From the NCBI GenBank assembly GCA_000002435.2, contig CM018792.1: a stretch of 64,000 nt of DNA; one strand, written 5' to 3'. Of this stretch, positions 2,756 to 43,216 are shown piece after piece. The notes under the pieces are model-generated. The model worked only from the letters and a program-made list of their open reading frames with translations. It did no database searches and was not told where the DNA came from. The DNA is from Giardia intestinalis (Eukaryota). Position 1 is the first letter of the stretch. Each line of letters begins with the position of its first letter. The position numbers and the translations under genes are program-made.

Positions 2756-2781
2756 TGGTGACGTAAACAATCGCTTGTCCT

Positions 2782-5700
2782 CTACACATCTGCTATGTTG
2801 ATTACTGGAGGATCCTCGACTGAAGCATCCTCACTTTGAGGGAGCAGTAGCCATGAAAGTGGTATGTATCCTACTTGGATAGAAATGGAAATATAGCCTG
2901 CAGGTGGCTGTATTGTGGACAGTGGACAGGCTTCAGGAAGTGCAACTGCCGTAATATATGCGCTAATAGTGTGGACATATCCTTGCTCTTGCTCTGCTGT
3001 AGCCGAGACAAGAGATTGGATGGAGGAGTCATAAGTGCCTGCGGAAAACACTAGATTAGTAAGTTGCAGACAAATGGGAAAACGATATAGTTCAGTGCAG
3101 CTTCTATGTGCATCGGTATCTGCAAAGGTAAGAACTCCAGAGCTAGTTAGATAAAGCCTCCCGGGCGGGTCGTTGAGAAAAGCGAGGAAACAGACTCTTT
3201 CAGCGGGAACATTCCTATGCAATGCTAGCGACAATTGTAGGATTGATAGTAAGGTTTGTAAGCCATTTTCTTTCTGGACCGAAGAGACCTTCCAAGCCCC
3301 TTCCTCAATCTTACATGCAGGGTCTAGTAGCATCTGGATAAGGGAAGACTGGACAGAACAGACGGGAATATCTCTGCATGAAAGCGAATGCAACATGGAG
3401 TTCTTTGTCGTATTCACGTGCCCATTAAGGATGCTTCGAAACTCTGCTAACTCGCCATACGAGGGGCCTCTCATTGAAGATGGCTCCTCGTTGGCAAGCA
3501 AAGTCTTCAATACGCGATCGAAAATAGACACTATCTTAGAACCTGTCAAGCACTTAATTGGGGCATGAGATGGTAGCTCGAGTGTAAGTAGTGGAGAGAT
3601 AACGCTCTCTATAAGCCTATCTGGAGATATTAGTGCCATGATATCCTTAAGAAGACGAGGGGTATTTTCTGAATCAAGTTTCCCGTCAGTGCCATGGTTT
3701 GCGTTAGAACCTCTCCACTGCTCTTGTGAACATAGCCCCTCTACAACGACTGTATTGGAACTGATAGGGTCTTTTTCCTTCTCCGCCAAACGAAGACTAC
3801 TTTTTCTCCATTTATACTGTACTTGAGACCGACACACTCTGGTCGCAAGCACCTGTTTGCTTCCATGTAGTGGGAGGCTCCCTTTGATGCCCAGAACCTT
3901 GAGCACTATGTAGTATTCAAAGCAGCTTTGTACTGCACATCTGGCTCTATCATTCATGAAGTAGCGCGGATCTCCTGAGCAGAGAAATAAAAACCTATTA
4001 AGACTCCGGGTGAATAGTAGCGCGGGACAAGGGGCTTGATCTGCACCGTGTTGTGCAGTGAATAAGAAGTCAAGATATCGGAGAATCCCCGGTCCAGATT
4101 CGATACCGAGCTGTAGTGTTCTATGGGTGCACGTGTGAAGCAATCCTACAACTAGTAGGTCGAGTTGATGGATTGTCGGTGCTCTGCGGGTCTCTGTTTG
4201 TAAAAAATAATGTGTCAAAGCAGCTTTGTAAAGATCTGATGGCACGGATGGCTGTTTGTATCTAACAATTATGGGTCTGCTTAGATATAATAATTGCTCT
4301 AGTATGTGGCTCAGCCTTGCTCCCATTGCGTCAATTGCCCGGTTAACGGTATGTTGTGGAATGATCAGCCAAACGGGGAATGCTGGCATACCAGTTGTAT
4401 TAAAGTACTGGTGCATGTTAATAAGGCATAAGAGGTTCTCTAATTCGTCAGCTAAGCATGCAGGACTGGATAGTAAACACACTGTAGAATGCCGATGGAA
4501 GTCTGTCCACGACGATGGAAACTGGTAAACAATTGGTACATCCCCAAATGAGTATTGTGTCACATCGCCATAACCACGCCGATCCAGAGCAAATAGTTCG
4601 TCTAAGGAAAACATCTCTCCCTCAGAGAACACTATGGTCAAAGGGAAGTAGCACCTGCAGTGCTCAACTACCTCCTCAATAGCTTCTACTGAAGAACCAC
4701 AAGCATGCGCATCGCAAACTAAGGATGAGACTTGTTGATTGGTGAGATTGTTAGACACTGGTGTCAGCTCGTGACGCTTTGAGACCAGAGTTAGGGTAGA
4801 GTCTATCATGGCATGAGCTGCCCGGAGTAGCGAAACGACTGAGTCACAAATGCACGTTTCTGGAAGCGCTTTGCCTTTCTCATCCACTTGGAGAAAGCCT
4901 GCAGGAAAGGCACAATGCTTCTCTTCATGCGACATGACTGGTAGCCTTGGCCTTTGAGGTTGCTCCGATACGAAGATAGAGGGTTTGTTCGACAGGTTAG
5001 GACCGTGTCCCAATGGAGATGTATATTGTCCCCAAATCTGGAGCAGTAGCGTAGATGCAATTGTAAATGATTCTGGACGCAGTAAAACAGAAAGAAGGAA
5101 GGCGAGATACATACCTTTCATGGTCGGTTTCTGAAATAGTAAGGGCACATAGGTTAAATTTAGGTGCTTCCTGTCCTTTTCTAGTTCTGCGTCCATCAAG
5201 GAAGCAATGCAGTGCTCCAAGTCAGCGCATCGCTTTGCGGCTACAGAAGGGTCTCTATCTAAGAGATGCTCTAGTGAGCTCCTTGCACCGACATCTAATA
5301 GGTACAAAGACACAAGTGTCACTAGTAGACAAGAATACTGAGAGCACACCAAGATTGCAGCTGGATTTTCAGCCAAATACGATAGAAGGTCAACGGAGTC
5401 CTCGCTAAATCGTGAAATAACTACACAAGAAAGGAAGAGTTGCTTAGCTTCCTTCGTAATAGAAAACTGTGAGGGTACAATTTTGTCTAAAGCGTAGTTA
5501 ATACTGGGGTCTGGTAGAGTAGTTGAATGAGACGGCAATGGTGGTGACAGCAGGCAGGTATGGATAAAAGAAGCCATCTCCTCAAGAGACTGAGGACACA
5601 AGCATGTCAGCAACTTGATGTCGATATCATGTGTCTGCTGCGATCCGAAATGAGGCTGTGCGTCCATCAGTAAGCGCAAATCGTTGTGCAAAATAGCCAC

Positions 5701-8700
5701 TTCTAAATCTCCCCTCGATATAGTAGATCTATCATTACAAAGCTCATCTTCTAAGGGCCCTAGTCTTGACAGCGTGCATAGCGTAAGAAACAATTTGTGA
5801 ATGTGAGCGTGGGGAAGTGCTGAGGTTGAAGTTAGACGAGAAAGCATATATCTAAGAATCTGTTGGAGGACAAAGTCTATGAGTATGCGAGGGTAGAGCA
5901 CTATGTAATAAAAGACAGGATACTTTAAGGAATCGTAGCGAAATGTAATCAGGTCTGCTATGAAGTTAGTCTGTAGAAGCGTTGTCGGCTGATCCGCATG
6001 ATCTCGAGAATCACACTGATTGTCGATAGAAGATGCTGTACTAACGGATTTTAGTGGTGAGTGAGCTGAGAAAAACCGCTTTAATTCAGTCTTGATTGTA
6101 CTATTATAGAAGCTCGTTAGTTGACCGCAGAGTGTTCTTTGAAAGGGCGTTAGTGCAGCCCTGTTTGTTTCGATCAATAGTGTAGGGTCCCTTTTAGCCT
6201 GTGTTCGCAAATACCGAAGCAGGTCACACGTCAATGTAGCGCACTCTTCAATCCAGACATGCCATCGAGACCGCAATAGATAACCGAGCTGAATCTCATT
6301 GAGAATATTGACTGATTGGCCCACTGAAAATTGAGACACCTCATCTCCGATCGGATAGGAACTCCTGTTTTGCAGATCCATCAGAGGAAGAGCACGATCT
6401 GCGCCTGGAATAAGTGCATAGAATAATAAGCACACCTCGCGAAGCAGGTCTAATAATATAGAAACTGACGAGGCGGCCTTTGCACCGCTACTATGAGCAC
6501 AAGTGAGCTGCTTGTAGCCACGGTTTGTACTTTGGAAGCTATTTGATCCAGTAGAATAAGCGCTCGAGAAATCAGAAAGCATCACTTCTATCTCTGCTCG
6601 GCGTTGTGTGTACGCTTCTGCTGTCATAATTGTTTTTTCGCTACGGAAGGATTCGTTAATAGGAAAGACCCCAACGCCGTACTCTAAAAGATAGGAGTGG
6701 AATGTGTCGATAAATGTGTTTAATGACAGAGAAAGCTTAGCGAACATAGTACTTCTTCTGTGGAGTATGGACAAGCTAGTAAATTCTGGACCGAATACAG
6801 ATTCCGTTAACATATCTGTGACAGCTGCACACTCTGCTGGCTCTGGGTCGTATCCAGGACAAGGTGAGAGATTACAGAGGAAGATCACAGACCCTAGCAT
6901 GCCTGATCTGTGCATCTCTGCCTGGTGGAGAGCATGTAAAACTGAGACAGGCGTAAGACTGGGGTCGTAATCTGGTGAAAGGCTAATGATGAAAATATAC
7001 TCAGAAAGGGGTTGAAATAAATATGTAATCTGACTACCAAGAGTGATCTGCTGTCGTGCATCAACGCGGGTTGTAGCTGCCAGCAGAAGCAGCTTTCTGA
7101 GAAGAGAGTAGTTATTTTGTGGAACTTGTCGTGCACCCACATCGGAGAACACAATCGCCTTATCAGACTCGGCCAGAGCCTTTGCCACCGATGCACAGAA
7201 TTGTTTATATGGTTGACGGACACTCAGCTCAACCCTTCTTTGCCTGATGTGATGTATGTATGTGTATAATGCCTGATTCGTTGATCTAAGAGAATGAGCA
7301 GGATCTGCCGTATTTGACACTCCGACCAATGCTTCATAGAGACGGCAGAAAGGAGTTTCAAAGCGACGCAGGCTAGCTACCAGCGTGAAGATAAGAGGTG
7401 GAACCAGCACGCTATATGTTAGAAAGATTCGTCGTCCCAAAAGAAGAAATAGCATACCGGCATAAAGAAGATGCCTATAGACTTCGTGATTATTGAGGGT
7501 GTCCCTAAAGAGTATCTCGGCCAGAAAGAGAGGTGTATCCAGACACAGAGAAACCTGGAAGTGTCTAAAGAAGAGATCGGTGGATTGTAGGTCATGCTCA
7601 GTCCAAACTGAGAATAACTTAAGTCTATTAGAAGCCGAAGACGAACTGCTTGAGCGACTCCTTGAACTGGGAAGCATGATGGTTAATCCATCCTGTTGCA
7701 GTGCTTCAATCAGGATTTCTAAGGCAGTTGTGCGTGCGCCATCACTTGTGGGGCGATCTAATAGTCCAGTGACTCCATAAAGCATACAAGCAACCAGAAC
7801 TGGGGCTTCGTAACATACATGTCCTAGTATAGAAGCAAGCAGCTTACTATATCCCTTACACGCCTCCAGACACGAATAAAGGCAATTTCGCATGTAGCAA
7901 AGCTCTCCGAAGACCTTGCTATCATGCGACACCAGATTGCCCACAAAATATTGCAGGTATTTAGACGACATTGATTCTATTGGAAGGATAGAATCTTGCG
8001 CATTATTAAAGCGGGTGACATAAATGTCAGGATACAGAGAGTCGTGGGTCTTTAACCCTTGCAACGGAGCCTCTCTTGTCATGTATGCATACGCCTTGAA
8101 TAGGCTATTGATGCTATTGACATTGGCATAATATTGCTGTGCACGTGAGAAGATCATCCCAATGGCATCAACCGTAAGCTTGATATACGCCTGGAGGGGG
8201 ACCTGCCAATTGTGAGAAGAACGAGAGCACGCCCTGTGAAGTGAGAGACAGGATAGAAGTACTGCCACCTTGTGTGCTTCCCAGTTTATGCTCAGTTGTT
8301 CTGGGAGATTAGCGACCTTGGACAGCTGACAGGCGTTAACCTTACAGTGAATAAGCAGCTGTTCGGCCGTATACTTTGCTACAGGAAATAAGGGATTGAG
8401 GGAAATGGTGTGCACACTAGGAAAATCAATCTTTGTAGACCTGATAGAAAACTTTGAGAGCACATCAAAGAACATAGCTAAGGAGCCATCAAATGTATCA
8501 TCAGGAGACCGCAGGAGCTTCTTTATGCCAAAATTCCTAATGTCTAGAGGATGTGACATTGTGGCTAGACAGTCAATCGAGCCGTTATGCAATACATATA
8601 TTTTAAGATTGGAGGCTAGAATGGAATGTAGTTCTTCTGCCTTGAGATGCCTTCCAAGGCCAGCATTGAGTGACAGGGATGCAAGAATGATAGAAAGCTC

Positions 8701-11700
8701 TTCGGAAGTGAACAGTGCCCTAACAAGATTGCCTGGAGTGATCGTTGTCTGAAGGAGACAGCTCAGGGCGGGCCATCCGGTGGCTGCGCTCATGAGGATA
8801 TCCATTGAGGAAAGGATAGTAACGCAAGAGGGCTCTATGAGGTACTTTTTCATAAGAGACTCTCCTTGCTCCAGCAGGCCCTTCATTCCGCCACCTTGTT
8901 CAAAACGATGAGCGAACTCAGACATTGTGCCGCAATTCTTATTGAATGTGTGCATAACATAATGCTCCAAGTGACCTGGAACAGAAAGTATAGACGGCAA
9001 ATGAGTGTGCAGCAGCGGCTCATCAGTGTACATGCAAGTGAAGGCGGCCCCACTAGAAACCCCAGAATCAAAGTACTTTGTACTGGGAGTGCGCAGAAGA
9101 CTTTCTGCAAGCGGGGCCAGCAATCCAAATTGACTGATGCTGTGGGCAGTTGTATGATTGATAGTATACAAAAAGTAAATCGGGTTAACACCTGCAGCAA
9201 GACAAACTGCGGTTCTCAGTAGCATAAGAGTAGCGAGAAAGTCAGAATCAAAACTAGATAGATACGCAGAAAGTTCCAGCACAGCTATTGACAGATTCTT
9301 CACAAAGCTCTCCGCCGTGCGGTTAGAGGGCTTGTCAGTGCTCTTCTCCTTTTCGCCTGCAGACACATGACTAACTGAGGCTACGATCGTGTCAATGTCA
9401 ACAAGAACACGATCATTCAGTCGGCCTCGACAATCCTTGGCAGAGCCTCCGCATACTGGTGAGCCCTTGGTTCTAGAGGAAAGCAGTTGATCGGATGCAA
9501 GTGAAAGCGCAGGGGTATCATTAGAATAATTACTTAAGTAAAGGTGTTCAAGCTTCAGATCTAAAAATGATGTGTAGCCCTCCAATGCTTGGAGCAGATA
9601 TGAAATTTGTTGAAAGTGCTTGTAGTCAGCAAATGGTGTGTATAGTCTATAGCAGGGAATAGTGATTATAGAAGTAGACAAGTTAATAGGCAGTAGCGGA
9701 GTTGTGGGCCATTGAACAGGAAGATAGTTGTGAGGTAGAATGACAGACGACGAGGCAGGCTGCAAACTGAAGGAGTCCTTGAGGTCCGATAGCCTGAGGT
9801 CCAAAGAGACCCCAAAATTAGACGGCCTTTGTGGCTCTTTGCTCATTGGAGGTTCTTTTTCAGTAAGAGCAAGAGATAATAGGCATGGTGAATCAGTATG
9901 CAGTGAAAGCAGCTCGTCGATGATATGGTCAGTGGCTTCATCGGAAAAGCTTCCAGAAGTGGTATGGGCTTGTATGACTCTGTATGCATCAATGTACTTT
10001 CCAGAAGATTCTGTGGGCCAGTCACGCATAGAATTCAGTATCAGCCTGCTCAGCTTTGCTGGTGACATCAGCATGCCCCACAAAAAGAGCTTCCACAAGC
10101 ATGAATACAAGTTATGGGTGGGGTGAATGCATGGAAGAGGAGAACGTAAATACTCTTGAAGACACGATATAACTTTCACAATATGCTCTCCCATGGCTTT
10201 TGATTCTGTGTGCATTTCAAAGACACGGAGAGCCAGAGATGGGCTTATGTACCGTGGGGTATCTGGTGGAGGGATATGTCTCATCTTTGCCTCGGCAAGC
10301 TGGCGATCGTACGCCACATGTTCAAGATATAGGTCAGCTGTGAAGAGCTCAAAGTAACGAGGGAACCTTTGAAGCCAGTCTAAGTTGATATTAATGCATC
10401 CACATGCGCAGCCGACCTCCAGTGGATTGACCTTGAATTGCGAATAGATCTTAGATGATAGAGGGGCTGCTGAATCAAATCTTTTAGTATCCTCTCGACG
10501 AGGAAGAGACTCAACTGAATTAACCAAAGAATTATCATCTTGACTGACTTTCTGAAAGAGGATGCCGATCAAGTAACATAGTCCATCTGGTATCCCGGCG
10601 ACAGCAGCACTGCAAGTATTGTAGAAGGCTCTTAAATCATGCATCTCTGTAGTTAGTTCTTTAGCTCTGGGTACTTGTGAAGGCTTGCTCTCATCATTGT
10701 TCTCTGATTGGCCTGTAGTTGGTGGCTGACCATCGTCTTGTTCCAATGCTCTACGATCTTCTTTATTGTGCGCTTGCAAATAGGTCTCAATCACATCAAC
10801 TTGCCACTGCGGTGCTAACGCTTGCAGGCTGCATATGTTGAGCGCTCGAGCACCAATAGCAGGAAGTAACCCGTCCAGAATGGATACCAATTTGGCATTG
10901 GACATACTAGGAACATTCCGAAGGGCAGCAGCAAGAGCACATACGGTGCAGTGCGCATAAGCTTCCCTAATAACAAAGGCTTCAGTCTCTAGAGCCGAAG
11001 AAGAAGGCAGCTGAGGAAACCAGAATAGACAGCGCTGTAGATCAGCGAGAAAATCATAATTAGAAAAAAGGTCTGGGTAGCTAGAGAATAAAAATGATAC
11101 GGCTTTGTTCAGCATCTCATAGCAAATGCTTCTATTTGAGGAAAATGCTAATTGGACCAAGGATAGAACGTGGTCTAGGGTTAATTGTGGTAATGATACG
11201 GTGATTTTGTCTATTGTTTCTTTACATGAATGAGTAGACAAGCGAGTGTCGTGTCGTCTTTCAACTATCAACGTGGTATTCATAAGGCTGAACTCTCCAA
11301 CAATGTGAGACCCGTCTCCAAGTGTCCTTTGCCTAGGAGGTGCCGAAGCTGACAGCTGTGCTAGTTGGGAGAAAAGTGAATCCCGGTCATCCTGTTTAGA
11401 AGTGTTTGGTACGTGTAGCACGCCAGCAGACCATCTGGATAACTTATTCAGAAAAAGGGCAGCTGTGCCCTGCTTATCGTAATAAGAATGAAATGCATTA
11501 CAGATCTCACCAGCAGAAGCAGTAGCAGTCTCGGTGAGACGGGCCCACGGACCAAAGGTGTCTTGCATCAAAAGTTCAGCTATCTCAATCAGTGATGTCT
11601 TGCCCATACTTTCATCTCCGCAAACCTCTAGAAACACACCCGAAGGGTAGAGCATCGCTGAGGTGGAACATGCAGCAATAAGCACCACTATTGCGGTGCG

Positions 11701-14700
11701 AGGCTCATCAATAAATAATGTAGGAGACAGTGGTTTTTGGATGGAAAATTGATAGCAGCTAGGAATGCCATATGAATAAGCTATTGTACTGAGCACGAGA
11801 TCGTCGCGCAGCTTTGCCAATCTTGCCTGATGATCAGTCGCATTATCTTTGAAGTTGTCAGAGCACAACTTCTTGTATTGGTCTTTTATGTCCCCCTTTT
11901 TCAGCTCGTATAGTATTGCCCCGTCAAGTGAAATGTTGTCCAAAATCTGAGTCTGCGAGGCACACGACAAAGTTGAGAGTATTCCCTGCCCTATCTTGTA
12001 GCTCAGGTATGAAAATGTAATGCGCTGGCATCCAGGGTCCTTGTTCTCGAGAGATGGCACGACATAAGCAAACACCTCTGAAAGGCCGGGGCTTGATGAG
12101 CTTACAAACTTACCTATAAGGTTCTGGAGCGATCCATGGATAGAGGACGCTGCAGAGGCAAAGGCCAATGCACAATCAGATGCCGTAACGTTGAGGGTAG
12201 TCCATATGGAATCTCGTAGACAGAAACGTTTGGTAGCAACTACTTTGCTGATGTACTCACTAAGAAGTATATGCTTATCCCGCTGTTCATATGTCATAGT
12301 AGCCATTGGTGTATTGATACCCTTCTCCCACAAATCCAACAGGACGGTTATGTGCAAAGCTGAAAGGAGATAGCCTGATAGAGTGTAATGTCCAGCGGCA
12401 GAGGGACTGGCATTGCGATCTGGCGCATTAAGTTCAAACCCAAAGAGTGTGAGAAGCCGGCAAATAGATGCACGAAACGTTTGACTAATCTCAGAAAGAG
12501 GTCCTGGCGAACTAATATCAGACATTCTGCTAATCAAGTACGTCAAGGAGTATGCGTTCCATGCTGCAAAGAAGATGAACATGAGAAGATGTACAAGACC
12601 CAAGGTCGCATTAGGGGAGACATGGAAAAGAGACTGGATTGTCTCCTCACAGAACTTAAGGGTACTTATGTTTGATGCATCAGATATCCAGTGAGTGCCA
12701 TTAATGAACTGAGAAAATAAATCCGATTTAGGTGGGATCGACTTTTTGTCCAACCCCTGAAACTCGGGAAAGTACGCATACTTCGAAGGATTGGGGCTAC
12801 TAGGGGCTTTTTGAAAGGCTGTGAGTTCTCCTGAAAGATAAGCATCATAACTGTCCGGGGAAAAGTAGAGGGGGAAAGTATCTAAGTCATTAGAAGACCT
12901 CTTCTCATTGGTAGGGTTTGCAGAGAACTCTCTGCCAGGAACACAATCGCTGCGCTGCACAAGCTTAAATTGAATAAGGTTATACCAGATCAGACTAGCC
13001 ATGACCTTGGTCGGAGCGACAGAAAGGAGCTTATGCTCACCTCCAAAGACAAGGGTAAACTCCTTCCTCACCACTTCAACTATGCCCTGAAGACAGAACG
13101 GAAAAATGATCCGGATGAACAGGCTATAAACTCTTTGGATCACGTAATCGGTTATTCGCGTAAATGAATACACAGAACGCTCTGCAATCCACGCGCTTGT
13201 AATATGAGAGACGCTTGGGAGCGGAACAATAAACGATGGATCACTGTCGGAGAGCAACAGAGACACCTCCCGTTGCAGATTCATCCCACATGCCGACGGA
13301 TTCAGCAGAAGAGATGGATAGAAGGAAGTAGCGCTGTGGCTTGCATCCTGTGATAAGCATAGACTACTAGGTGGTATCTCCCTATCCATATTCCTGTGAG
13401 GTAATATCGGAGACAGTAAAAATTCCATCTCGTGGGGAATAGAACGAGGTACGATTGGTAGAATGAACTGCCTCTTATATACGTAAGTGATCGCCGGCAA
13501 GTGTTGCTGATAAAACGAATTGGACACTACTATAAGTACTGGGGTAATGTCAGAGAGATCGAACATTGCAGCTGAGATGGAGTGAAGATCGGACAGAGCT
13601 CGTACTTGGTAAACAATGAGGCTCTGCACACACAAGTCTGCATGTCGACCCAGTAACCGCTGGACTTCAGCATGGTCTGTTGTGCGGATAGCTGTCAACC
13701 CCTTCATATCACAGACCAGCTGAGCAACTTCACATGCAAATTCATACGAGCAGGACACCATCAGAATAGGGGAAATACTAATCTCAAGCATTTGCGAAAT
13801 TGTAACAGCAGTATAGATAAGCGTGAAGGACTGATTGTACTTGATCATGAGGAAGGAGAGACGGTTCTTATAGCATTGAGTAAAGAAAGGATAGAAATAC
13901 TGAACAGTATATCTATAGAACAGTGAATCGCTAATACCATTGATTTGTAGTGACAAGTATGCCTCTATGGCGTTGGTAAGGATGTCAGAATCTGCCTTAG
14001 GCAACATGAAGCTAGTCACTAAAGCAGTTCTGACCGACCAGAGTGTGTTCCGAAGAGCACTCGCATCCTTATTGTCTAACGGCACACGGGTCAGTAGGTA
14101 GTGCAATGCCGAGAGCGCTACAGATGTAGGAGAGTCTGAAGCAGATCTAGAGAGTATCATCAACTCGTCTACCTCACCGATAATGAAAGAGCTAATCTGT
14201 GCAAGACGCACTGAAGCAATCGAAAGAGCTGACAAACGACCAACCGGAGCAATCCACTTGACATCGAGAACGCTGGATAGGACCGTCATAGAACTATGAC
14301 TAATAATGTCGTATGCACTATAGAATGAAAAGTAAATCAGCTCTGGGGCATATATGTTGTCTAGAATAGATTTTGCATGCTTATCCACACACAACGGATG
14401 CCCGAACTGATCAATAAGTGGGGCAGGCGTCTCACTTGTCGGACATTGTGAAGAGGCTATCTTGGCACCTGCGCTACCTAAGTCCGCAGGTAGTAAGCAG
14501 TGCATAAATATCACAATCTTACCCATTCCATGGGGCTGAGGCAGCACGTCAGAGACACAAGCATCACGAATAGTGACGTAGGTGCCCAGGAAGCTGCCCT
14601 GGTCGTCAATAGTCATAGATGACCACTTGTTTCCAAATTCAAGACTTTCTATGGTTGCCCGAGCCTTCGCAGAGATGGGCGAGACCACAGCTAGGCCAGG

Positions 14701-17700
14701 GATTAGACCGGTAGGGCACTGCAGCTCTTTTAATATATGCGTCATCAGAATCTGCTGTTCCGTTTCAAGTAATTCAAAGCCGACAATCCCTACAAGAAGA
14801 CCAGCTGCAAGGCGGATCATCAGATGGACGATGTCTTTCTCGAAGGTGGTAGGAGTCATAAAAAGCAGAGTGGACTGGCACAACATAAGTCGTGAAAGTC
14901 GGCGCAAGATGAAGCGTGGAAAAGAACAGCAGTCTAGCTGAGGAATCTTGTCAAGTAGCAAAAAGACTATGTTTGTGCGTCTAAAGCTCTCCAAAACACG
15001 AAGCATGCTTATTTGAAGCTGGGGAGGAAGCACGCAATAGAGATCCTCTGCTTGAGGAGCTCCAATCCAGTGTGCCGACGTTTCGAAGGAGGTCATATCA
15101 TTAGACAGCGTAATATCGATGGACTGAGTGTTGGAGTCGTTTGTTGTGAATTGTAGAAATATCATAGGATAAATGGTGCAGCGCAAGTAGTCATCCATGT
15201 GTGCCCCAGCAAACTCAAACGTCTTGTTAGCAGACAAATAAGCAGCATGCGTGTGAGCAAGAGTCTTATCATCCGAGATTGCTTTCAGCAAGTGCGCAGT
15301 AGCTGCCTTGTGTCTGGCCTGCTCTCTTCTCAGTTCTACCCAAAGATCGTGCTCTAGCATAAGAAGCAGCATGTACCGCTCAATGATCCAAATATTCAAT
15401 GCATCTCCATACGAGGCGTTATACTTCACTCGCGGGGAATCCTTACATGCCTTGTTGCTCATCAGGACAAGGGGATCATGACACTGACTTTTAGCGTCTG
15501 CTCGTACCTTAAAAGTGAACAAAATAATATGCAGAAATAAGTAGGTACGCTGAAGAATAGGCCTCTGGTTCTTGAACTTCTCCACAAAATCCTCTGGGGC
15601 CATGCATCTTAGTTGATCCTCTAAAAGTATTTTCAAGGTTGTAGAGATAGCAACGCACAGCGCATCGTATACTGCTGAGTTAACTATGACAACAACGGAG
15701 TTGATAATAGTGTGGAGCTCAAATGCTAAGTCGCTTTTGCAGGACGGGACTGACGCCAGACATGCAAGCGATAAGAGATCGAGAGTTTGTTGCAATGGGA
15801 GACGGTCCATAGCAGCCACAATCTTCAGAAGCCCCGTCAGTACCTGGGAGGTACAGCGTAGCAGGGCAGACGATATTGGCTTAAAAAGGATATCTGGGAG
15901 AGAATACAACTGCGTAGGGCACCTCACTGGCTGCACTAGACTCAAAGTCTCACTGTGAGACACCAACTCGGTAATCTGCTGTTTGCCATTAGGAAAGAAC
16001 GGTGCGGTTAAGCTAGTAATACCCGGAAACGCATGGCTTCGAACCCACCGAGTGCAGATTGACAAATCCTTAATATTAGGTATAAATACATGAGACCCGG
16101 GTGCCCACAGAGGAAAAAGGAGACTCATGAAGTGGTGCGAGCCATTTAGGTAAGGCACTAGATGCTTAAGCTGCATTGTGTCATGCCCGCCTAAAGAAAT
16201 CGTTGGGGAGAACTTTGGTTGGTACTCAGTGAGTAGTAACGTACCTCGTTGCGCAACACTTTTGGGTGCCTTTGGTGGCTGCTGATTGCTACTCAGCAGC
16301 TTACTGAAGAGAAAAAGGTGTGGAGCAGTGATAAGACGATGAACAATAGTATCTAGATCTTTTAGCACTGATCCCACAAGTTTATAGACCGGTGCACTTG
16401 TTGCACAACAAACCAGTGGTGTACCTGTGCTGAGCTTTGAATTGATAAGCGACGAGTACTGCCCATATATGTTGAAAAGCGTCGTAGCCTCTTGCATGGT
16501 GAGAACATTTACCGAGTATAGCAGTGTTGGATGGTCTGCCATTGACCTAACACCTCGGTTGATTACGCTTGCTTCAATAAATGACGCGTACCCGTACATA
16601 GTCAGTGCGTACCTAAAGAGGCGAGGAACGTAACAGAGACTGTGGTAAAGAATGGTTGTAGCGCGCAGAGCAGCACGCAGGTCTTGGATGCGCCGATGAA
16701 CCGCGTCTGAATATGTCGTGCAGAGTAGAAGGCTAGAATATGGAAGTAGGGGAAGCGGCAGACAGTCTAAGCTCTGTACCACTGAAAGGATTGCACCCTT
16801 CAGTGTTCCGACTTCTGCTACCGGAATCTTATCATGATGGTGTCGAGGCCCAGCCGCCACAGAAGTTAGAATAGATTCGGACTTTGAAAGCTGGAGAGAG
16901 GAAGCTTCAGGGACAAAACGGACTAGGGGAATTGGACACCTGGACAGATCGCTAGAATATGAATTTTGTGAGCGCGGATTGGTGTATCCCGGGGGCGAGT
17001 CGAGCTGTATATGATCGATAGCAGATATGAGAACGCCTCCCAGCAGCTTTTCTGCCTCTTCCAACTCTGCAATCGCATGACTATCTGCCTGGGCCTTGAT
17101 GTAGAGGTAAGCAAGAAACTCCGAGGCACATGCAGTGCTGTGAATAGCCACAAGGATATCATCAACAGGTGGGGAGTCTGGTATGTGAAGATACGACTGT
17201 ATCTCTTTCTTGTGGAAAGTAGTAAAGAAAGGTGCACCCAAAAGATCCAGGCAAACTATGTCGTTGGCTATGTGCTGGAGAGAGGATTGGACGAGTAGAA
17301 GATAGCGCCTCCAGCCAGATGGAATAACTTTTGCTAGCATTGAGCCAGTTCTCGCTAGTATGGAAAACCCGCCACCAGAAAACCCGTAGCATTCATGACG
17401 TGGTTCCCAACTTCTAAGAAGTGTGCTCCCTTGTGCAAAGGAGTTCATATACAGCTCAGTAATATGTTGCATATTATCCACCAGAGGCTGAGTCCACAGG
17501 GAGAGTACTTGGACCGCATTTAGAGTTGAGTCTAGTACTGAGTAAAGCCTGGGAATAAATGGTAAAAGCATAGAAAGGTCCCAAGACCCTGCTTCTTGAA
17601 GAAACGTGTTCAGCTGTATGGGGTAGACAGTCGCGGTATAGAAAACCTGGATGCAGAGGTGTAGCTGTTGCAATGATGGTGCAGAACTTAAAAAGCCCCT

Positions 17701-20700
17701 TGTCTGAAGCAGCTCATCAGTTGAAACTAGTGCACCACGCCATCTCTCCAATAGCGTTTCAAGGGAAAGTAATTCAACACTGACGTAATATAATACCGAT
17801 AGAAAGTGTGCTACTGAAAGCTGATTGGATAATGAATCGTGTTGTGGTTGATGGAGAGATTGGGCCGACTTGAGTCGGAACGGAATTATGCTGTCGTTCA
17901 TAACGAAGGTCTTCAACATAGCATCTTCATGACAAATACTTTGAAGCAATATGGGCGTATCCAGATCAGGAGAAGGAAGATTCAGAAGCGAAGTTGCGCC
18001 GAATATGCTATTGAAAAATGCCAGATCGGCATCAGAATCCGCTGGGAGACCGTCTATTGTCTTAGATCGATATATAGGTGGCACAGTGAACATCTTCATT
18101 ACAGTGAAATGATCTTCATATGAAGATAGAGAGACCTTCTCACAGCCCTCAGCATCGGGAATAGTCAAGGAAGAAACGGTGATAATCTGATCAAGAAGCA
18201 TCCTGGAGGCAGTCTCCAGCCAATCTTCAGTGATAGCTGTGAGCTCCAGAAACCGTGCTCGTCGCTGCTTGAAGATTGCAACTGCCATAGCTTGCTTCTC
18301 CTTGAGAGACAGGATACGTTGTAACAGTGAGAATGCCGAGTCTTCCAGCTCATCCACAGTGAAGACTGATCGAGTGTCAAGGAAGCGTGCGCACAAGCTC
18401 TCGTATTGCACGATGGAAGCATCATATATAAACGAGTACAGCTCATGTAGCTTAATCCCAGCAAGCTGATCTAGCAAGTTCTGCTGTGCAAGAATACTGT
18501 CAGGGCTGTCTATAGGCCTTTGCAAATCTCTTTCGAGACTCTCCAGCTCACAAGATAGTGTCTTTGTGATCAGAATAAGAGAGGCATACTGTATGTATAA
18601 ATAAAGATAGCGATAGTAGGTTAGGAGGGATGCCATGCTTTTCTTAAGCTCGTGAAGTGAGATGGCAAAAATGGTCTGATAGACATTGGCAGGGAGAACG
18701 TGGAATCCATTGCCATATAGCGAAATTCCATCCAGCGTTTTGTCGATTACTGAAAAGTCTAGCTGCGGGATTAGTTTATGAAACTGTGGGTGCAGAAGGC
18801 TATATTTGGTTAAATTACTGGACACATCAGGGTCCTGAATACTAAGAAAACTTCTTGCTGATAGAAACGGGCAATCTGGAGGATTCGGATCAACCTGTCC
18901 CTGTCCCTGTACGTGTGCACGCAGTATGTGAGAACTGCCAAACTCTGAATATAGCGATGTTTCGGGATCATAAAGAGAGATGTTTCCGACGTCTTTTCCG
19001 TAGGTTGAAATGTAAGCATACACGTTCTTCATAGAACTAGTTGTAAGCGCACTCTGAATTGCGCTATAGCAACTCCCAATCATAAGCTCATCCATCACCA
19101 TGTCGATGACAAGGCGGGCAGTGGATGCAATGCTCTCAAACCTGTCATTGACCATGCGGTGGTCCAGGATGTTATGGTCAGTAATGTGCAGAAAGCTGCA
19201 ATAACCGAAGTTCTCAAACGCTGTGCCAGTCATAAGTGAAAACTGCGAAGAATCCAAGTACAGTTCTTGGAGGCTGGTTCCTGCCAAAAAGGTGTCCTTA
19301 AAGGTAAGGGGTTTTGGCAAGGCCAATGCTTCTTGTGTGGAAAGCAGCGTAGAAAGTGACGATGACTCAGTTAACGTGTTCCAGAGACGCAGAAACTCAA
19401 CAGCTTCTCCTTCTAAGTTGCTGGAGGGAAAGATCCCCATGTTACAAAAATGCTTGAGAGCGTCGAGCTGCCTGTCCGTAACAGTCAATTTTCCTGCGCT
19501 CCGTGTTGATTTGCGTGTGGAAGAAAATCTGGAGGAGCAGGAGCCCTTAGCCGAAGCCACCTCATCTTGAAAAGTATCTGAGTAGAAATCTATTAGCGAA
19601 AGAGACAATGCGCTTGTGTTCTTGTTTGGTGAAGCCGGGTTCTCTAACTGGAGCTTTATATTGAGGGTAGTTGGAAAGAAGTAGTCGAAATAGAGGGAGA
19701 CCATGATTGGTAGAGTGAAGAAAATGGTTGAAAGGTCTAGTGCAAGATTCCATAAAGGTACCAAAGAGCGCTCAACCTGCGGCACGTAGCTAATCAGCAG
19801 CGAAGAAACCAGATCGGATGTCAAGGCAGGATCCATAACGTCTGCCAAAGAGTGTGGCTGAGAGTAAACTACTATGAGCTGGTGATCAGAAGCATCACAG
19901 TTTGAAGAAAAATAGTACCCATTAAGGCGATTCTCTTCAAGAAGGCTCTCCAGATCGTCTGTTAGTGCCGTTACTTCTTCAGATTGTTTAGACTCAACAA
20001 GAGATTGAGTGGAATGCTGCACTAATTTAAGGTCTTCTTCTGAGAGAATCTTGCTAGCATCATTCATTTTCCAAATAACTTGCTGCAGTTCATAGTCTAG
20101 TGGAATTTTGACGCTCTTCAGACGCTCGGCGTAGTCTGCGTCTAGCACAGCGAGAGATGCATACAGCTGTGCATTATCGGCCTTTGCAGTCAAGTAGAGA
20201 TCATCAATGGTGAGAGATTTGTTCCTAGTAAGCTGATCGCTGTCTCGCTCGATAGCTAGCCTCATTGTCTTCTGCTTCTGCTTGTGGATATCCTCTCGCT
20301 GGCTCCTTATTCTGCAAACAGAGTCTTCCAACTGCTGTATGGAGTGAAAGTAGTAGCCATATAATGTCCTTGCTTTCGGAGAAACAATGTCCACACTACA
20401 ACGACGCAGGTGACGCGTAAACGTTATAGTCAGATTTAGCGTAACCCGATAGAGAACTCCTGGAAAGTCGAGGCTTGATGGGGAAAACCCAAGGTGGTAC
20501 AAGCGGCGCAAAATCACCCGTGCAGCAGATGGAAAGGCGAGATTGTCGTGCATGTCAGTATTACTAGTAGCTATGCAGACACCTCCCCGGGGGGCTGTAA
20601 CACACAGATCCTCTTCTGAGTCCGCAAACTCAGACTCGCTATTGTGACTAGAATCACTATTACTGCCAGACAAGCCAGAAATTCCCAAAACGTCCTTTTC

Positions 20701-23700
20701 ACCATGGTCTATTTTTGCGGCTAAAGTCCTCCGTCCACGCTTGAGGCGTTTAATTGCTCTGCGCTCCAGTAGATGTCGCTGATCAGAGACGTCGGTGTTG
20801 GCAATAATAGTACTGGTGAAGAGGCTTGTGAAATCCAAGAGAAGTGGATACATTGCAGCCGAAAGGTGTCTTGCAGCAATCAGGAAGGTATCTGGAAGAG
20901 TTCGAAATGGACAGGATAGCACGATACGTAGTTGTTGCTGCAAACCTACGCGTGATGGGTTGTAACTTAGTCTAGCATAATCCTTTTTTACAATTAGTCC
21001 AAACACGTCCTCCATGCGGGGGGCTTGACACTCTAACGGGAAGCCCGACTCAGCCAACTTCTGTAAATGGGGAATTGCCATATATTGATGCTTTATGCAG
21101 GCTTCAACATAATCGTCATAGGAATCCGTAGGTCTCGGGGTAGGAAGTAAGATCTGTCGAATCAGTTCGTTAGTCACGGTTAAATTACGGCCCGCCTGAC
21201 GTGTATTAGCGCGAGATACAGCTCTTGAAGCGGTCTCTCCTCTATGGCGAATAGCCGAACTATAGTCTTCTTCAGAGTAATAGTGCTTCTGAAATTCTAA
21301 ATTAATCAAGTAGCTTATTGTACGATAGTAACATTTCCCAGCGATAATTGTAAGCTGAAAGGGTACTATGCTTCGCCAATAAAGAAAGAAGAGGGACTTA
21401 ATGCATAAAAGCTGATCTGTGTGCTCGTGAAGGAGGATTTTAACGATGAGATTTGCCGCCAGTACAAGCTTATCTAGTACCTTAGTGTAATTATAGCTAC
21501 GTAAGTGAAGAGCGCTCTTGAGGTATGTGCTTGCCAGTTCTGACAATAAGCCCCGGTCCTCTGGGCAAACGTTTCCAAGTCGTGTCTGGAACGCATCACC
21601 TTCTGTGTTACAGTCACAAACACATTGCAGGTGTAAGCCAGAAAGGTCGGAAACATCTGTTCTTAGCTGCAGGAGAAGCTTTTGTAGCATTGACGCAATC
21701 GCGGAAAACTCGCTGTTGAAGAAATAGTTGGTCAGTTGGCCTGTTCTGGAACAAATGTCCTGCAGAGCAGGTAAAGCAGTGGACCGATAAGTACAGCCCC
21801 AGGTTACACAGTTTCTTAGGGCAGTAACGGCCTTAAAACGGGCTATCAGGCTTGATTGTCGATCCAAGACAGACATGAGAATGGGTTGATAGCGATCCTT
21901 TAAGGCACTGGAGAAGTGGTCGAGACTGTCCGATGCATTCAGCTCATCTCTAATACAAGTCAAAGAGTATCTCGAATAGTAAGAATGCAGCGAGACAGGA
22001 GCATATCGCAGTAGGCCAAGAACATTCAACTGAGTAGATATCTGTAGGCGCCGATCCTCTGGCATCGTGAGCCAGTTATCCCCTACAGACAAGAGAGTAG
22101 AAAGACTTATTTTCTGAACCCCTGCAAGGTGCTTGTTGTGGACCGCAGTAAGATGGAGTTTATATTCATGCAAATAATCCACTTGCAATTGCCTCAAGCG
22201 CTCGGGGAAGATGCCCATGGCTTGCGCCACAGAGTTAATGCGCCTCAACGTTCTGAAGAAAACGGGGTGTTGCAAATATCCAGTGTCCAAGGTGATATCG
22301 TACGAAGAATCAGCCTTGGAAATTTCCCAGTTGCAAATTGTATAGAAATTCTCCTGGGGCTCAGGGATAATGGTCTTAACAAAATCATTAGCGAGGGCAT
22401 TGGAGAGCTCGGATTCAACAACGTCCTTTGCTGAGAAAAGCTCGTCGATGGAGCATTCGGAATCAGTTACAATTGGGATGCTTGATAGCCTTTGAGGAAG
22501 AGAACTGGCTCTACACTGCCTTCTAGACTTCAAACTAGAGTGAAACATGTTCCTGGCACGCTTCTCGATCGTTGTGCGTTGAAGAGTGAAGTCATCCATT
22601 ATGCTTCCAAGCGTCTTGTCCTGGCCACAGCTGAGGGATAGATCATGTAAAGCCGTCACACTCCCTGATAGTGCAGATGTCTGAGGAGTCATATTAGACA
22701 AGGCTTGCCTAGCGTTCATTAAGTGCCGATCGTGATATGGAGAGGTGTTCCTGTTAATTCCATGAAGATTGACACTAGAGGAGTGGAGCAGGGCTTCTCT
22801 GAACTGAGGGGAAGCACGAGAAGAGGAATCTAAAAGGGGGTTCCGTATGACCTCCATACTTTGTCTAGTAAACGGATTGGTGACCGTAAAAAGTGCCTCA
22901 TTGATGCTGGAAGGCATCAGAAAAGGGTTAGCGCCATAATCAACAGGGTATTCTTCTTCTAATAGACGCATGCTTGGAAGTAGGGTCAGACGAGACACGG
23001 GAACACTATATGTTTCCCTATGAAGAACTAAGTCAGACTTTTGCAATCTGGCTTTGTAGAATGCCAATTCATCAGGTAGATCCAACAAGCTCGTCTCTGG
23101 AATTGTCGTTGCACTATTTGATTTGGCAACAAGATGTACATCCACACTCGCTCTATTGAGCCGCAGATCTAGTGACTCCAATGTTCCCACAAGAAACTTT
23201 ACACTCATCTGCGAAGTGATGCTCTCGCGCATTTCTGAGCAGTGTGCATGCATTGTCGACCTCGCTGGTGCTGCTGGCACATACAAGGACAGCGAATTGA
23301 CTGTCGGGGTGTCCAGGTTATGAATTAGAACGAGCTGAGCATCACATCCGTTATTATCATAAGCAGAAGGCAGAGATGGAAGGCAAACCTGCAGACCTAC
23401 ATCAATTTCCTTCAGCTCTTGGCAACGAGCAAACGCAGTGCGACGCCCATCAGGGCTAGCGGATAAAGCTGCAAAGTTACTAGATAGGATCCCCGAGGAT
23501 CCTGACTCTCTGTTAGACAGGTTGTTGGACCCTAACAAAAGTGGCCGTGGTCGAGTCGACGCATGGTGTGTTGATAAATGGGCCCTGAGCGGAGCGGATG
23601 GACTCTTAAGTGAAGATGTAGAAAAGTCTTTGGTTAACCGTATCGGAGCCATTGATGGGCCTCCGTGAAAAGTAAGATGCTTTAAAAATCGGACTTTTTT

Positions 23701-23706: not shown

Positions 23707-24184
23707 GTCCCAGTCCTACACTAGACGCATTCTCGGGGACATGCGGCGGATGTCAGAGTACAATGGCATCTTCGCCACGGTGGACCCCAACAACATATCC
23801 CTCTGTGACGCTGTGGTCATTGGCCCCTCCAGCACAATCTGGGAACATGGCGTCTTTAGGCTTAAGGTGACATTTACTAATAATTATCCTGCCGAGCCAC
23901 CAGCGGTAAGATTTCTCTCAAGCATTTATCATCCCAACGTCTACAAAGACGGGAAGATATGCCTTGACATCCTGACCAAAAAGGAGTGGAAACCTGTATA
24001 TGATTTGGGTACTGTGCTTACCAGCATACGCTCGTTACTCTGCGACCCCAATCCCAAGGATCCCGCTAACTGTGATGCAGCATATGAGTACATATACGAC
24101 AGACATCTGTACGAAATGAAGGTGCGTGAGTGCGTGCGCAACAGCTGGCTGAACCCTTACGATGTCTACAAGAAAGAAGAGTGA
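23705..24184 (+). CDS. Ubiquitin-conjugating enzyme E2 of the RAD6/UBC2 type. UBC fold with the active-site motif HPNVYKDGKICLDIL.
   Basis: The ORF-track start at 23699 is TTG. The first ATG is at 23705 (MSQSYTRRILGDMRRM...). The sequence aligns by eye with RAD6/UBE2A: (RRLMRDFKRL...FKL.IEF.EEYPNKPP.VRF.S.MFHPNVYADGSICLDIL...W.P.YD...ILTSIQSLL.DPNP.SPAN). Confidence 0.88.
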   Translation: MSQSYTRRILGDMRRMSEYNGIFATVDPNNISLCDAVVIGPSSTIWEHGVFRLKVTFTNNYPAEPPAVRFLSSIYHPNVYKDGKICLDILTKKEWKPVYDLGTVLTSIRSLLCDPNPKDPANCDAAYEYIYDRHLYEMKVRECVRNSWLNPYDVYKKEE

Positions 24185-25061: not shown

Positions 25062-28000
25062 ATGGATCCACAAAGGGCAGACCCGAAAAGTGTCAAATTG
25101 GACAGGGTCAAGCTAGTTGAGGCCGTAGTTGCGTATAGACGTTGGTTCGTGGATGCGCGTGGCAAGCCCAACCCGTCGTTCACTAAGGCACACAGTAACT
25201 TTGATATACTTTACGAGCAAATATCTGCCATTGTTGCTAAGACAGAGGCAAAGAACATGAGCTACGGCGAGACAGTTGAAAACTTTCTTGTCCTTTTGAG
25301 CTCAAATCTTTTTACTTATGCAAACAAGTTCTTCTTCACCGAAGGAGGTGGGCACAACTTCTTTGCGTCTACAGAGCACACAGCGATTGCAAAACAGATC
25401 TGGTGGGTTATCAAAGAGATACACATCTATCTCATCGACGGCGCTCTGCACCCCGTGTTAGGCGCTGGGGAGGAGTCCATCCAGGTAGGCTCAACAACCA
25501 TAACATCCACTATTACTGTGAGCGACCACCGTGCAGTGCGGATTCCTAACGGTGCTAAGTCCAAATACTACGAAGAGATACAGGCCATAAATGTCTTCAT
25601 TGATATGTTTGCGCGAAACGCAAATGCTCTACACCTTAGTAAGACAGACATGATGCAGCTCTGCCGAACGGCCTTCAGTATATGCATTGATACACCAGCG
25701 TTGTCTCTGGAGCTGCCATCATCCATTAGTTCGATGCTCATTGACTTGTCGTGTGGTGAGATAGATGCCATAGAGCTTCTCAATGCTATCTTTGACCGAT
25801 TCAAGGAATATGACATTGAGATCTCGCGTGTCTTCACCATGCTGCTCCTCTTTGTGAAGAACCAGATCAATCTCTGTTTCTTTGACGAGGAGTACGATAT
25901 GCGAGTGTGCACTTCATCAGAGAGCTCCGAGTCTAGCTACAAGCGCGGGCTTTTAAAGATGCTGAAGCGCATTCACCCTTTAGTTATTAATCTAAGATCT
26001 GCATACCCTCCGAAGTATATTGACTCGGAACTTATAGACGTCATTCTCCGCACATTCTTGGTGCACCTAATATCAATCAGTATAACTGACTCAACGCTTT
26101 ACATATACTTAAATACCTTGGCCCATAGCATAAGGTATTGCCGCAATAGCTATAGCTCCGCCGCAAATCAAATTCTTGTTTATCTTATTGTTGGATGTGA
26201 AAAGTCAAAGCTTACGAGCCCCGTTTCCAAGCGTCCCTCGTTGGCAGAAGTAACAAGCCGGATGGATCAACTGACCTCCAGTCTTAAGAAGAATGCGCCG
26301 CGCACTAGTGTAAGCTCAGCCACTCAGTCCATTGATGTGTCTCTTAAGCCCCCAGAGTTCTTAAAAATAGAGAGCTCCTTGGCCATGCAGGAAAAGCCTA
26401 CGCTGTCCTCTAAAAACGTCGCTGCATCTACACCTATTGAGTGGCATACGAAGTCAAACAGTCATTTCACCCGCTCGCCTCTGACAATGAATGATTCTCC
26501 CTCGGCTGTCTTAGAGGACAGCCTGAAAGTGATGGAGATGCCGTCCCCACTATTGTGCAACAATCAGGAGAAGGTAGCACCCATCACAACACAGCCGTCT
26601 GCCGTTCTCTCTAAGCAGATGTCTCCCCCCAGGGTTGTTCCTAAGCCCCCCTCTAAGAAGTACAACGTCAGTATCACAAATGACTCATACAATTACACTC
26701 CCATTTGGAAATATAGCGGATTTATTTTGCACCAGATGGATGCTCTAACCAATCGAGACCAGCCCTTGGATAACTTCATCTATGCAATAAGTAAGGTCGA
26801 CGGATCCCTTGTCCCTATTCTGAATTTCGTGGCTGAAACAGAGCATTATCATTACCAGATGTATTTACCAAACCTTCTTAAGTACATTATATCATTAGAT
26901 CATACGTATTTTTCGTGTCCTGGACACCTTAGTAACGCATACAAGCTGGTATCTGCGTGCATGCACATCTTACAATCTCTACTGGACATAGGATTTGCAA
27001 TGACGATAACTGAACTAGAACAGTCGGTGAAGACGATGATCTCACCCGTTAACAACGTCAGCTGCAATGTGTTACAAGGCTACTCTAGTCCTCTCCCCAT
27101 GCTCAGGAGGAACAATAGATGCTACATGAAAACGATCAGCGACGTCAAGGAGCTGACTGCCAATACGCCCGCAGACACAGCCAAGATGGACATTTACGTC
27201 GAGATAGGGAGAAAATCTATATCAAACACCATCAAGCGGAGTCATCTTTCTGTAACGTTCCCACCAGATATGAGCACACACGTTGCAGGGCTCTTCTCTT
27301 CAGACAGGACACTTAAATCTGCCAGCAGTACGACTCTTTCGGGACTCTGCACAGGGTACAACTCCCCCAAAATAAGCTCGCCAATTCCTCAGCAAGCAAG
27401 AGAGCGGAACCCCATGCTGTTCGCGCAAGAACAGACCCACTCATTCATACTGGATGGAACGGGGACCTTCAAAACAGATGACCTCCCGAGCTCCGTCATC
27501 AATAGCAAAGAGTACCATTTCCAATTTGTGTACATGCATAGTCCTCTGCTATATTTTGCACTGGAGGCATATAGCCATCTCGTAAGAATATCAAATTATA
27601 TCCTCTCCTTCTCTACAGACTCCCTTGAGGAAACGCTTATAAGTAGAGATGCTCGTAACAAGAAGACCTCAGAAATCCTCTTTTGGATACCTCTGCAATA
27701 TATAGAGGATGTGGATCCGTGGCCCAAGTACGGTGCTAAGCTTCCTCTGTCGCTCTCCCTGTTCCGGCTCAGATCTTTCGTTATCAATTTCCGTACAAAG
27801 CAGGTGAACATTGAGCAGACCCTCGACAAAAAGAAGAAGACCAAGAAGCGTAAGATGGACCTGCTCTCCCGAGCTCTACCTGGCAACAGGTTCACCCAAA
27901 GTGCCATCGAACGTAGCCTGAATAACAGTGCCATCGAACAGATGCAGCACTCTAACATCAGTATCGATGATATGATCAGCGGACTGGGCGACGAAGATCT

Positions 28001-28481: not shown

Positions 28482-28614
28482 ATTCTGCAAAGCCTTTTAT
28501 GAGAGGTACACTTTGGAAAGTGTATCTTGCTCTGATTGGGACAGCCTGCAGAACGGTCTCAGAGTAAAGAATGGACCGGATCTTCTTCAATATAATTTAC
28601 ATTGTTCAGGGTTG

Positions 28615-43018: not shown

Positions 43019-43216
43019 TCACGTCCCGGAATGCGCCACTCCTATGCCCGCTGCTCTCACAGCCGTCGCCGGCCCCCAGGTAGTCAACGACCGTGGTGAC
43101 ACCAGCATACATACTTCTGCCTTGTTTACTAGGAGAAGGGCTGTATTGTCCCAGCACGATAGAAACTGGGTACGCATACAAGCAAGGCAGACAGGAGAAG
43201 ACATTGATCTGCGCCG

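Follow-up and report, generated by a model that had tools for sequence, protein, structure and literature searches.

The stretch of DNA analysed here (the window) is a 64,000-nucleotide piece of the Giardia intestinalis genome (GenBank assembly GCA_000002435.2, contig CM018792.1), and the subject of this report is a giant gene on its minus strand. According to the listing of open reading frames (ORFs), positions 2782..23706 form a single uninterrupted ORF of 6974 codons counted from the first ATG, and in our own translation the only stop was the terminal one, at 2782-2784. The probability of 6974 codons without a stop is ~1e-157 at the base composition of the window, where stops make up ~5% of random codons, and the GC content along the gene is 45-47%, equal to that of its surroundings. 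An earlier note on this DNA, made from the letters alone, had described a real and very large single-exon gene in DNA of ordinary base composition, and both points were borne out, the ORF being too long for chance and intact elsewhere. The product read from the ATG at 23652 (6956 amino acids, aa) is identical to P0001, which is XP_037901934.1/KAE8303643.1 (GL50803_0060603, Giardia intestinalis WB), named "hypothetical protein" in the database; in isolate DH, the 6974-aa form is annotated as DHA2_152048. The mass estimated from the length is 0.77 MDa. Roughly one Giardia protein in two bears the label 'hypothetical'. Full-text literature searches returned no paper mentioning the gene identifiers, and the number 60603 did not occur in the supplementary tables of the Giardia omics papers examined. 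The gene is thus already in the databases, solely as a hypothetical protein. The earlier note had put it forward as a candidate new component, yet it had not gone unnoticed: besides this annotation, one of the copies in Hexamita already bears the UniRef name 'Dynein heavy chain'. The features discussed below are listed here, with amino-acid numbers that follow the 6974-aa long ORF, in which the annotated start is M19.

2782..23652, minus strand: coding region of GL50803_0060603 with its stop codon included, beginning at aa 19 of the long ORF (the annotated ATG); 6956 aa, assigned by identity to P0001
23653..23706, minus strand: 18 in-frame codons up to an alternative ATG; probably non-coding, as they coincide with the spacer and overlap the E2 ATG
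16960..23652, minus strand: N-terminal third (aa 19-2249); poorly conserved, 30-70% of columns gapped against Hexamita
3607..16959, minus strand: conserved core (aa 2250-6700); colinear with Hexamita inflata P0033
6832..9081, minus strand: aa 4876-5625, the block with the strongest conservation in Hexamita; BLASTP E = 3e-18
11593..11619, minus strand: Walker A / P-loop GDESMGKTS (aa 4030-4038); the sole such motif, conserved in the orthologues
4078..4869, minus strand: invariant 264-aa stretch (aa 6280-6543), from the comparison of assemblage-A isolates
6877..7239, minus strand: predicted alpha/beta island (aa about 5490-5610); the only part of the models with a predicted local distance difference test score (pLDDT) of 55-76
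13477..13767, minus strand: possible second alpha/beta island (aa about 3314-3410), with strands PILMV and PVLIVV; pLDDT < 45

The giant gene stands head-to-head with an E2 gene (23705-24184, plus strand) that encodes a UQ_con domain and lies 52 bp from the ATG at 23652. The neighbour had been called a RAD6-like E2, and this identification was confirmed, as its best 17 PDB matches all belong to the RAD6/UBC2/UBE2A/B subfamily (E 1e-44 to 1e-37), with the next subfamily class in the PDB scoring ~1e-28. Positions 23653-23704 form a 52-bp A/T-rich spacer common to the two divergent genes. The start codon of the E2 gene shares the CATG at 23704-23707 with the alternative ATG (23706), which overlaps it; if the latter were the start, no spacer would remain between the genes. 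In addition, the Giardia-lineage orthologue P0027 (described below) aligns from residue 19 on and begins with 'MA', like the WB protein at M19. Gene callers place the start at 23652 in independent assemblies; counter to this, the annotation of isolate DH uses the upstream ATG. The overlap with the E2 ATG and the beginning of P0027 at its counterpart of M19 make 23652 the more plausible start, and the 18 upstream codons are probably not coding. At the opposite end of the giant gene, an 834-aa ORF (251-2755, plus strand) converges on its 3' end, with 26 bp between the two stop codons. This ORF has a match to the C-terminus of the variant-specific surface protein (VSP) family of Giardia and weak GLUG-motif matches, and it looks like a cysteine-rich membrane protein.

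The integrity of the gene was examined in Logan contigs, which were retrieved via the identical E2 and 252-aa neighbour genes and were all of assemblage A. A gene of 6955-6956 aa was called on >10 independent assemblies from different sequencing runs, and the frameshift or stop that the earlier note had envisaged in an independent assembly was found in none of them. Since so many independent assemblies carry the intact gene, an assembly or annotation artefact, in which fused genes or a hidden frameshift would give the appearance of one long ORF, has a negligible probability; no point in its support was found, and a full-length colinear orthologue of 6990 aa and an excess of synonymous changes also stand against it. 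Over the first 9.9 kb, two assemblage-A haplotypes differed at 165 sites (77.5 synonymous and 87.5 non-synonymous), corresponding to a ratio of non-synonymous to synonymous substitution rates (dN/dS) of ~0.34. These data indicate that the giant gene is under purifying but relaxed selection. Among the full-length assemblage-A proteins 297 positions were variable, and the 264 residues of aa 6280-6543 showed zero amino-acid polymorphism within the assemblage, where ~11 variable sites were expected.

In order to find relatives, an exhaustive HMMER search was performed with aa 5351-6550 (1200 aa, picked for low polymorphism) against 1.84 billion proteins. Three proteins matched, namely P0027, P0028 and P0029. 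P0027 (6990 aa) is a Giardia-lineage protein from a single Logan assembly (32-kb contig) without an NCBI/UniRef counterpart in its 90% cluster, and it is colinear with the giant protein end to end at 55% identity. P0028 is an 85-aa fragment, and P0029 is a 4331-aa protein of Hexamita inflata (E = 2.5e-5); two other members of its cluster, P0033 (5430 aa) and P0035 (5214 aa), are longer. The Hexamita protein is therefore at least 5430 aa long, and its identity to the giant protein is ~20%. BLASTP of the giant protein against P0033 gave six colinear segments spanning aa 2332 to 6965 (aa 2332-2615, 2873-3071, 3898-4049, 4949-5595 with E = 3e-18, 6019-6228 and 6882-6965), and a global three-way alignment agreed with these segments. 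Within the conserved core, the conserved blocks are aa 2250-2700, 2850-3100, 3226-3450, 3900-4125, 4876-5625, 5926-6225 and 6376-6675. In Hexamita the region that corresponds to the N-terminal third is far shorter, and this extension belongs largely to the Giardia lineage alone. The Hexamita copies P0029, P0033, P0035, P0036 and P0031 show 98-99% mutual identity with models of 4331, 5430, 5214, 2961 and 1494 aa, respectively, and P0029 diverges from the others past residue 4224; the annotation probably truncates or splits the gene in some copies. Orthologues from G. muris and Spironucleus were not among the matches of the exhaustive search with aa 5351-6550. On these alignments the family is at least diplomonad-wide, occurring in Giardia and in the free-living Hexamita. 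The protein had been called lineage-specific, which is right insofar as only diplomonad relatives were found and wrong if it is taken to mean Giardia only. The earlier note had also considered that an HMMER profile search might place the protein in a well-known family; the search with aa 5351-6550 did not, and its only colinear matches were the two orthologues.

A hydrophobic stretch (GVFLEVC) leads into the motif GDESMGKTS, and LIEIAELL comes after it. Exactly one [AG]x4GK[ST] motif was found in each of the three orthologous proteins, and all three fall on one aligned column, as GDESMGKTS in WB, GNKGIGKTA in P0027 and GQRAQGKST in Hexamita. Thus, the G, the GK and the S/T are kept at ~20% overall identity while the x positions vary, and all three motifs have hydrophobic residues upstream and a helix-like LI(E/D)(I/V)A downstream. 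Shuffling gave a chance expectation per protein of 0.05 for Gx4GK[ST] and 0.17 for [AG]x4GK[ST]. The motif had previously been reported as single, which is correct, at coordinates that have to be shifted from 11596-11625 to 11593-11619; it had further been dismissed as a chance-level match to be expected once per four such proteins, which conflicts both with the expectation of 0.05-0.17 and with the shared column in three orthologues. Judged from the alignment, the P-loop shows the pattern of a selected phosphate-binding loop and is not a chance match. Since its conservation pattern fits such a loop, the giant protein is likely to bind nucleotide. No conserved Walker B or acidic motif was detected within 150 aa past the P-loop in the three-way alignment. 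Candidate GTPase motifs after the P-loop (DKQG and NKLS) were rejected on account of their wrong spacing and the deletion of the segment in P0027. Just past the P-loop, aa 4057-4161 (window about 11224-11538) hold 13 of the 297 variable positions in 105 residues, a density ~3x the average and odd for a catalytic domain. Overall, these results establish a real, constrained gene with a product of ~7000 aa, a family with members in Giardia and Hexamita, and a single conserved P-loop; what is new and useful about a protein known so far by annotation is that its P-loop is conserved and that it has an orthologue in Hexamita.

Searches for known domains were uniformly negative. Pfam gave no match to the giant protein, neither to its two halves at E <= 1 nor, at E <= 10, to tiles of 700 aa set in two registers. 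All PDB sequences were searched with phmmer, which returned nothing relevant, and PDB profile searches with the segments aa 2875-4074, 3850-4750, 4751-5800 and 5801-6974 gave nothing relevant either. Tropomyosin, the sole match of the PDB sequence and profile searches, was set aside as coiled-coil noise. The statement of the earlier note that the protein has no recognisable domains accordingly stands for Pfam (whole and tiled) and for the PDB sequence and profile searches, as does its remark that the hallmarks usual for such giants are missing, since no dynein or midasin AAA, PIKK, HECT or BEACH signature was matched in Pfam. The entire 6974 aa contain a single CxxC, which makes a module of the UBR-box, RING or zinc-finger type improbable. 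One hydrophobic segment (aa 2959-2981) occurs in the whole protein; there is no N-terminal transmembrane helix or hydrophobic anchor and no chorein region, and the N-terminus looks disordered. These observations bear on the idea that the gene encodes one of the known giants, such as a VPS13/BLTP1-type lipid-transfer protein, midasin, UBR4, or a BEACH, PIKK or HECT protein, diverged beyond recognition. Size and the general sequence divergence of Giardia are all that speaks for it; against it are the absence of Pfam matches to these families, the lack of an N-terminal transmembrane helix or chorein region, modelled windows (see below) that are helical and not of the beta-groove type, the single CxxC, which leaves no zinc modules, and, for midasin, the presence of one P-loop only and the absence of an acidic or MIDAS-type tail. 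We regard this explanation as very improbable, and the lipid-transfer, midasin, E3-ligase, BEACH and PIKK readings were rejected on the defining features tested.

Next to these searches, secondary and tertiary structure were considered. Self-BLAST of the giant protein found no internal repeats or duplications, and hydrophobic-moment and Chou-Fasman profiles did not separate helical from beta-rich regions. AlphaFold2 models were built on three-sequence alignments, and both were poor, with a mean pLDDT of 33 for model 1 (aa 4751-5800) and 30.5 for model 2 (aa 2875-4074). At this low confidence, the modelled windows are predicted to be mostly helical with alpha/beta islands, and long helices are predicted in model 1 at aa about 5171-5208 and 5264-5309. 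In the island at aa 5490-5610 the strand AIVFSDV leads through a loop into the helix NNYSLLRKLLLLA (the counterpart in Hexamita reads IVFTNFGSSGANNTN), and in the model this strand-loop-helix resembles a degenerate P-loop element. In the putative island at aa 3314-3410, the residues PIL are invariant in the three-way alignment. No similarity between the putative alpha/beta islands was detected with hhalign. The 'helical-repeat scaffold' of the earlier note was therefore not demonstrated, given that self-BLAST found no repeat and the low-confidence models combine helices with alpha/beta islands. A related explanation, close to the view of the earlier note, is that of a purely structural helical megaprotein in which the P-loop is a relic that binds no nucleotide and is retained for the sake of the structure. 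The mostly helical AlphaFold secondary structure, the lack of a conserved Walker B or catalytic motif, the high polymorphism of the region past the P-loop and the relaxed overall constraint (dN/dS 0.34) would all suit such a protein. We nevertheless hold it to be unlikely, because the retention of the G, the GK and the S/T with varying x positions is the pattern of a loop in contact with a ligand, and because the internal repeats were not found.

The name 'Dynein heavy chain' that UniRef gives to Hexamita P0035 raised the question of whether the giant protein is related to dyneins. When model 1 was compared with the PDB by Foldseek, no match was significant, but dynein heavy chains occupied ranks 1-5, 8, 13 and 15, including yeast dynein 9dn5_A (E = 0.05), followed by 9dmw_A, human DNAH10 (8j07_k8), chains from trypanosomatids and human dynein-1 (9bly_A). 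For the island at aa 5490-5610, the P-loop GTPases IF2, RABL3, EF-Tu, G-alpha-i and GIMAP7 came next, none of them significant. With model 2, no dynein was among the top 50. Because this comparable model gave none, the dyneins found with model 1 are not accounted for by a preference for long chains alone, and the Foldseek ranks may be taken as a weak, region-specific pointer to dynein.

The sequence around the P-loop was then compared with human dynein. The human DYNC1H1 query was verified by a 228-aa AAA1 fragment, which equals a database dynein fragment at 100% identity, and by a 2768-aa stretch, which equals residues 1879-4646 of human dynein-1 in the PDB (6374 bits). When the register was fixed on the P-loop, the residues to either side of it in Hexamita gave a higher score with human AAA4 (z = 2.6, p = 0.006) than with AAA1-3 (z about 0.8-1.2); for the Giardia sequences, which carry a 6-aa insertion at this place, this was not so. 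Two published groups of unusual dyneins also count in favour of a dynein relationship. Kollmar (2016; PMC5100056) described 'orphan diplomonad dyneins', among them one whose tail could not be aligned to any class, and the dynein heavy chains DNHD1 and DNAHX are described as probably non-motile and insertion-rich, with a degenerate AAA1 (bioRxiv 10.1101/2025.01.18.633724). The giant gene is probably not one of the Kollmar orphans, since those are recognisable by sequence.

On the other side, a series of sequence tests weighs against a dynein relationship. No dynein Pfam family (DHC_N2, AAA_6/7/8/9, AAA_lid_11, Dynein_heavy or Dynein_C) matched the Giardia protein at E <= 10, and the Hexamita protein was likewise without a dynein Pfam match as a whole or in 600-700-aa tiles at the same threshold. 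Alignment by hhalign of sliding family windows with a 120-sequence dynein AAA1 profile yielded only a 13-column match at the P-loop. The family hidden Markov model scored the DYNC1H1 motor (1879-4646) no better than 200 shuffled copies of it, profiles of four family segments searched against all PDB sequences retrieved no dynein, and the C-terminal resemblance to dynein was not significant (Smith-Waterman, p = 0.72 for Hexamita). Several likenesses to dynein had been picked out by eye, and none was supported when scored: 'HWIG/HWLG' with EYLG, 'WIERGAAF' with 'YERGVAV', and 'GSSGANN' with 'GVSGAGK'. The same was true of a pseudo-P-loop at Hexamita 1724, which lies 1011 aa before the real one (AAA1 and AAA4 of human dynein are 1031 aa apart). 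These by-eye likenesses are post-hoc pattern-seeing. Taken together, sequence methods detect no relation of the giant protein to any described family.

Two explanations of the conserved P-loop have to be weighed on this evidence. We propose, at a probability of roughly 0.4, that the giant protein is an extremely diverged and probably non-motile descendant of a dynein heavy chain. The other explanation is a diplomonad-specific giant scaffold that has its own P-loop NTPase module, AAA+/STAND-like or GTPase-like, with no dynein ancestry, and in which nucleotide binding would regulate the assembly or conformation of a lineage-specific structure. Such a scaffold would agree with the lack of similarity to any known family in Pfam, the PDB and the HMMER search of 1.84 billion proteins, with the negative outcome of every dynein-specific sequence test, with the conservation of the P-loop, and with the P-loop GTPases that Foldseek also lists for the island at aa 5490-5610. 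It is harder to reconcile with the UniRef name of the Hexamita copy, with the dyneins at the top Foldseek ranks of model 1 and with the AAA4-like flanks of the Hexamita P-loop; moreover, flagellate proteins of >5000 aa with a P-loop in mid-chain are mostly relatives of dynein. We consider a scaffold of this type the main rival of a dynein descent, possible though less likely. Stated as a family, it would make the giant protein the founder of an undescribed group of giant P-loop proteins in diplomonads, possibly wider in Fornicata, unrelated to known megaproteins and acting as a new kind of nucleotide-regulated component of the cytoskeleton in organisms whose microtubule organelles are unusual, and to this version we give the same tentative standing.

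The giant protein appears to be a mostly alpha-helical megaprotein with at least one predicted working P-loop module (aa about 4015-4050), and it probably has further alpha/beta modules resembling degenerate P-loops, at aa about 5490-5610 and perhaps at 3314-3410. If it does descend from a dynein heavy chain, its AAA+-type core would have kept a single Walker A without a recognisable Walker B. Nucleotide, probably ATP, would be bound as a structural or conformational switch and not for motor activity, and in the microtubule and flagellar cytoskeleton of diplomonads the protein would be a large component with a structural or regulatory part, to which the long Giardia-specific N-terminal extension would add an attachment 'tail'. 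The dynein ancestry, the non-motility and the cytoskeletal role are all speculative.

Other genes in the window were also noted. Neighbouring genes carry the VSP domain. Two regions, at about 43000-50000 and 54000-56000, have a GC content of 55-58%, compared with 45-49% elsewhere in the window; the first contains a VSP-like ORF (43217-45256, minus strand) and an 880-aa ORF without a Pfam match (46649-49291, plus strand), and the second overlaps a kinase-plus-ankyrin gene. This gene (54201-57398, plus strand) and another at 51299-53080 (plus strand) encode protein kinases with C-terminal ankyrin repeats, an architecture typical of the expanded NEK kinases of Giardia, and a pantothenate-kinase-like (Fumble) gene lies between them at 53118-54197. 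The adjacent ORFs at 25062-28481 and 28513-31908 (both plus strand; 1139 and 1131 aa) have no Pfam match, and a comparison of the two by BLASTP gave no sign of paralogy (best E = 1.3); the former is GL50803_0010291, a hypothetical protein.

The microtubule cytoskeleton of Giardia, with a ventral disc, a median body and eight flagella whose cytoplasmic axonemes are long, consists for the most part of proteins whose ancestry is unknown. A protein that has been kept since before the split of Giardia and Hexamita, with its P-loop preserved, is a plausible major structural or regulatory element of it. Taken by itself, the giant gene is one more uncharacterised Giardia orphan, and current knowledge is not overturned by it. 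Were the dynein descent true, no known dynein heavy chain would be more diverged than this one, and the protein would represent a second independent case, after DNHD1/DNAHX of animals, in which a motor has become an ATP-binding scaffold without motility. If it is not a dynein, it would represent a new family of giant NTPases.

The closest known counterparts of the proposed dynein descendant are the orphan and non-motile dyneins, i.e. DNHD1 (class-12 dynein heavy chain), sea-urchin DNAHX and the Kollmar orphans. The giant protein is likewise a giant single chain, here in a flagellate, with a nucleotide-binding loop deep in the chain and no obvious catalytic Walker B, and, like DNHD1 and DNAHX, it has large insertions (in its case relative to its orthologue). 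Unlike the giant protein, DNHD1, DNAHX and the Kollmar orphans are all recognisable as dyneins by sequence. Canonical dyneins have four Walker A motifs, whereas the giant protein has one; at 6956 aa it is ~2300 aa longer than they are, and no counterpart of the dynein linker was identified in it by Pfam.

Midasin (Rea1) is of a similar size class (about 5000 aa) and also has AAA+ P-loops inside a long helical protein. Its six tandem AAA modules, several of them with a Walker A, are situated near the N-terminus, whereas the giant protein has a single Walker A at aa 4030, and the acidic region and C-terminal MIDAS/VWA of midasin were not found in it (no AAA_5 or VWA match in Pfam). RNF213 (mysterin), a giant of 5200 aa, has an AAA core with partial Walker motifs in mid-chain, flanked by helical arms. 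That the giant gene adjoins an E2 gene would be a further parallel, though in a compact genome it is probably a coincidence. RNF213 differs in its RING and zinc-binding E3 module, as compared with the single CxxC and absence of a zinc-finger signature in the giant protein, and neither RNF213 nor any other PDB chain matched the giant protein by sequence. Finally, huntingtin, UBR4, VPS13 and BLTP1 share with the giant protein its size, a leucine-rich composition and the scarcity of enzymatic signatures along the length. The HEAT/ARM, chorein and UBR Pfam matches and the internal repeats are absent from the giant protein, and in turn it has a conserved P-loop, which sets it apart from these families.

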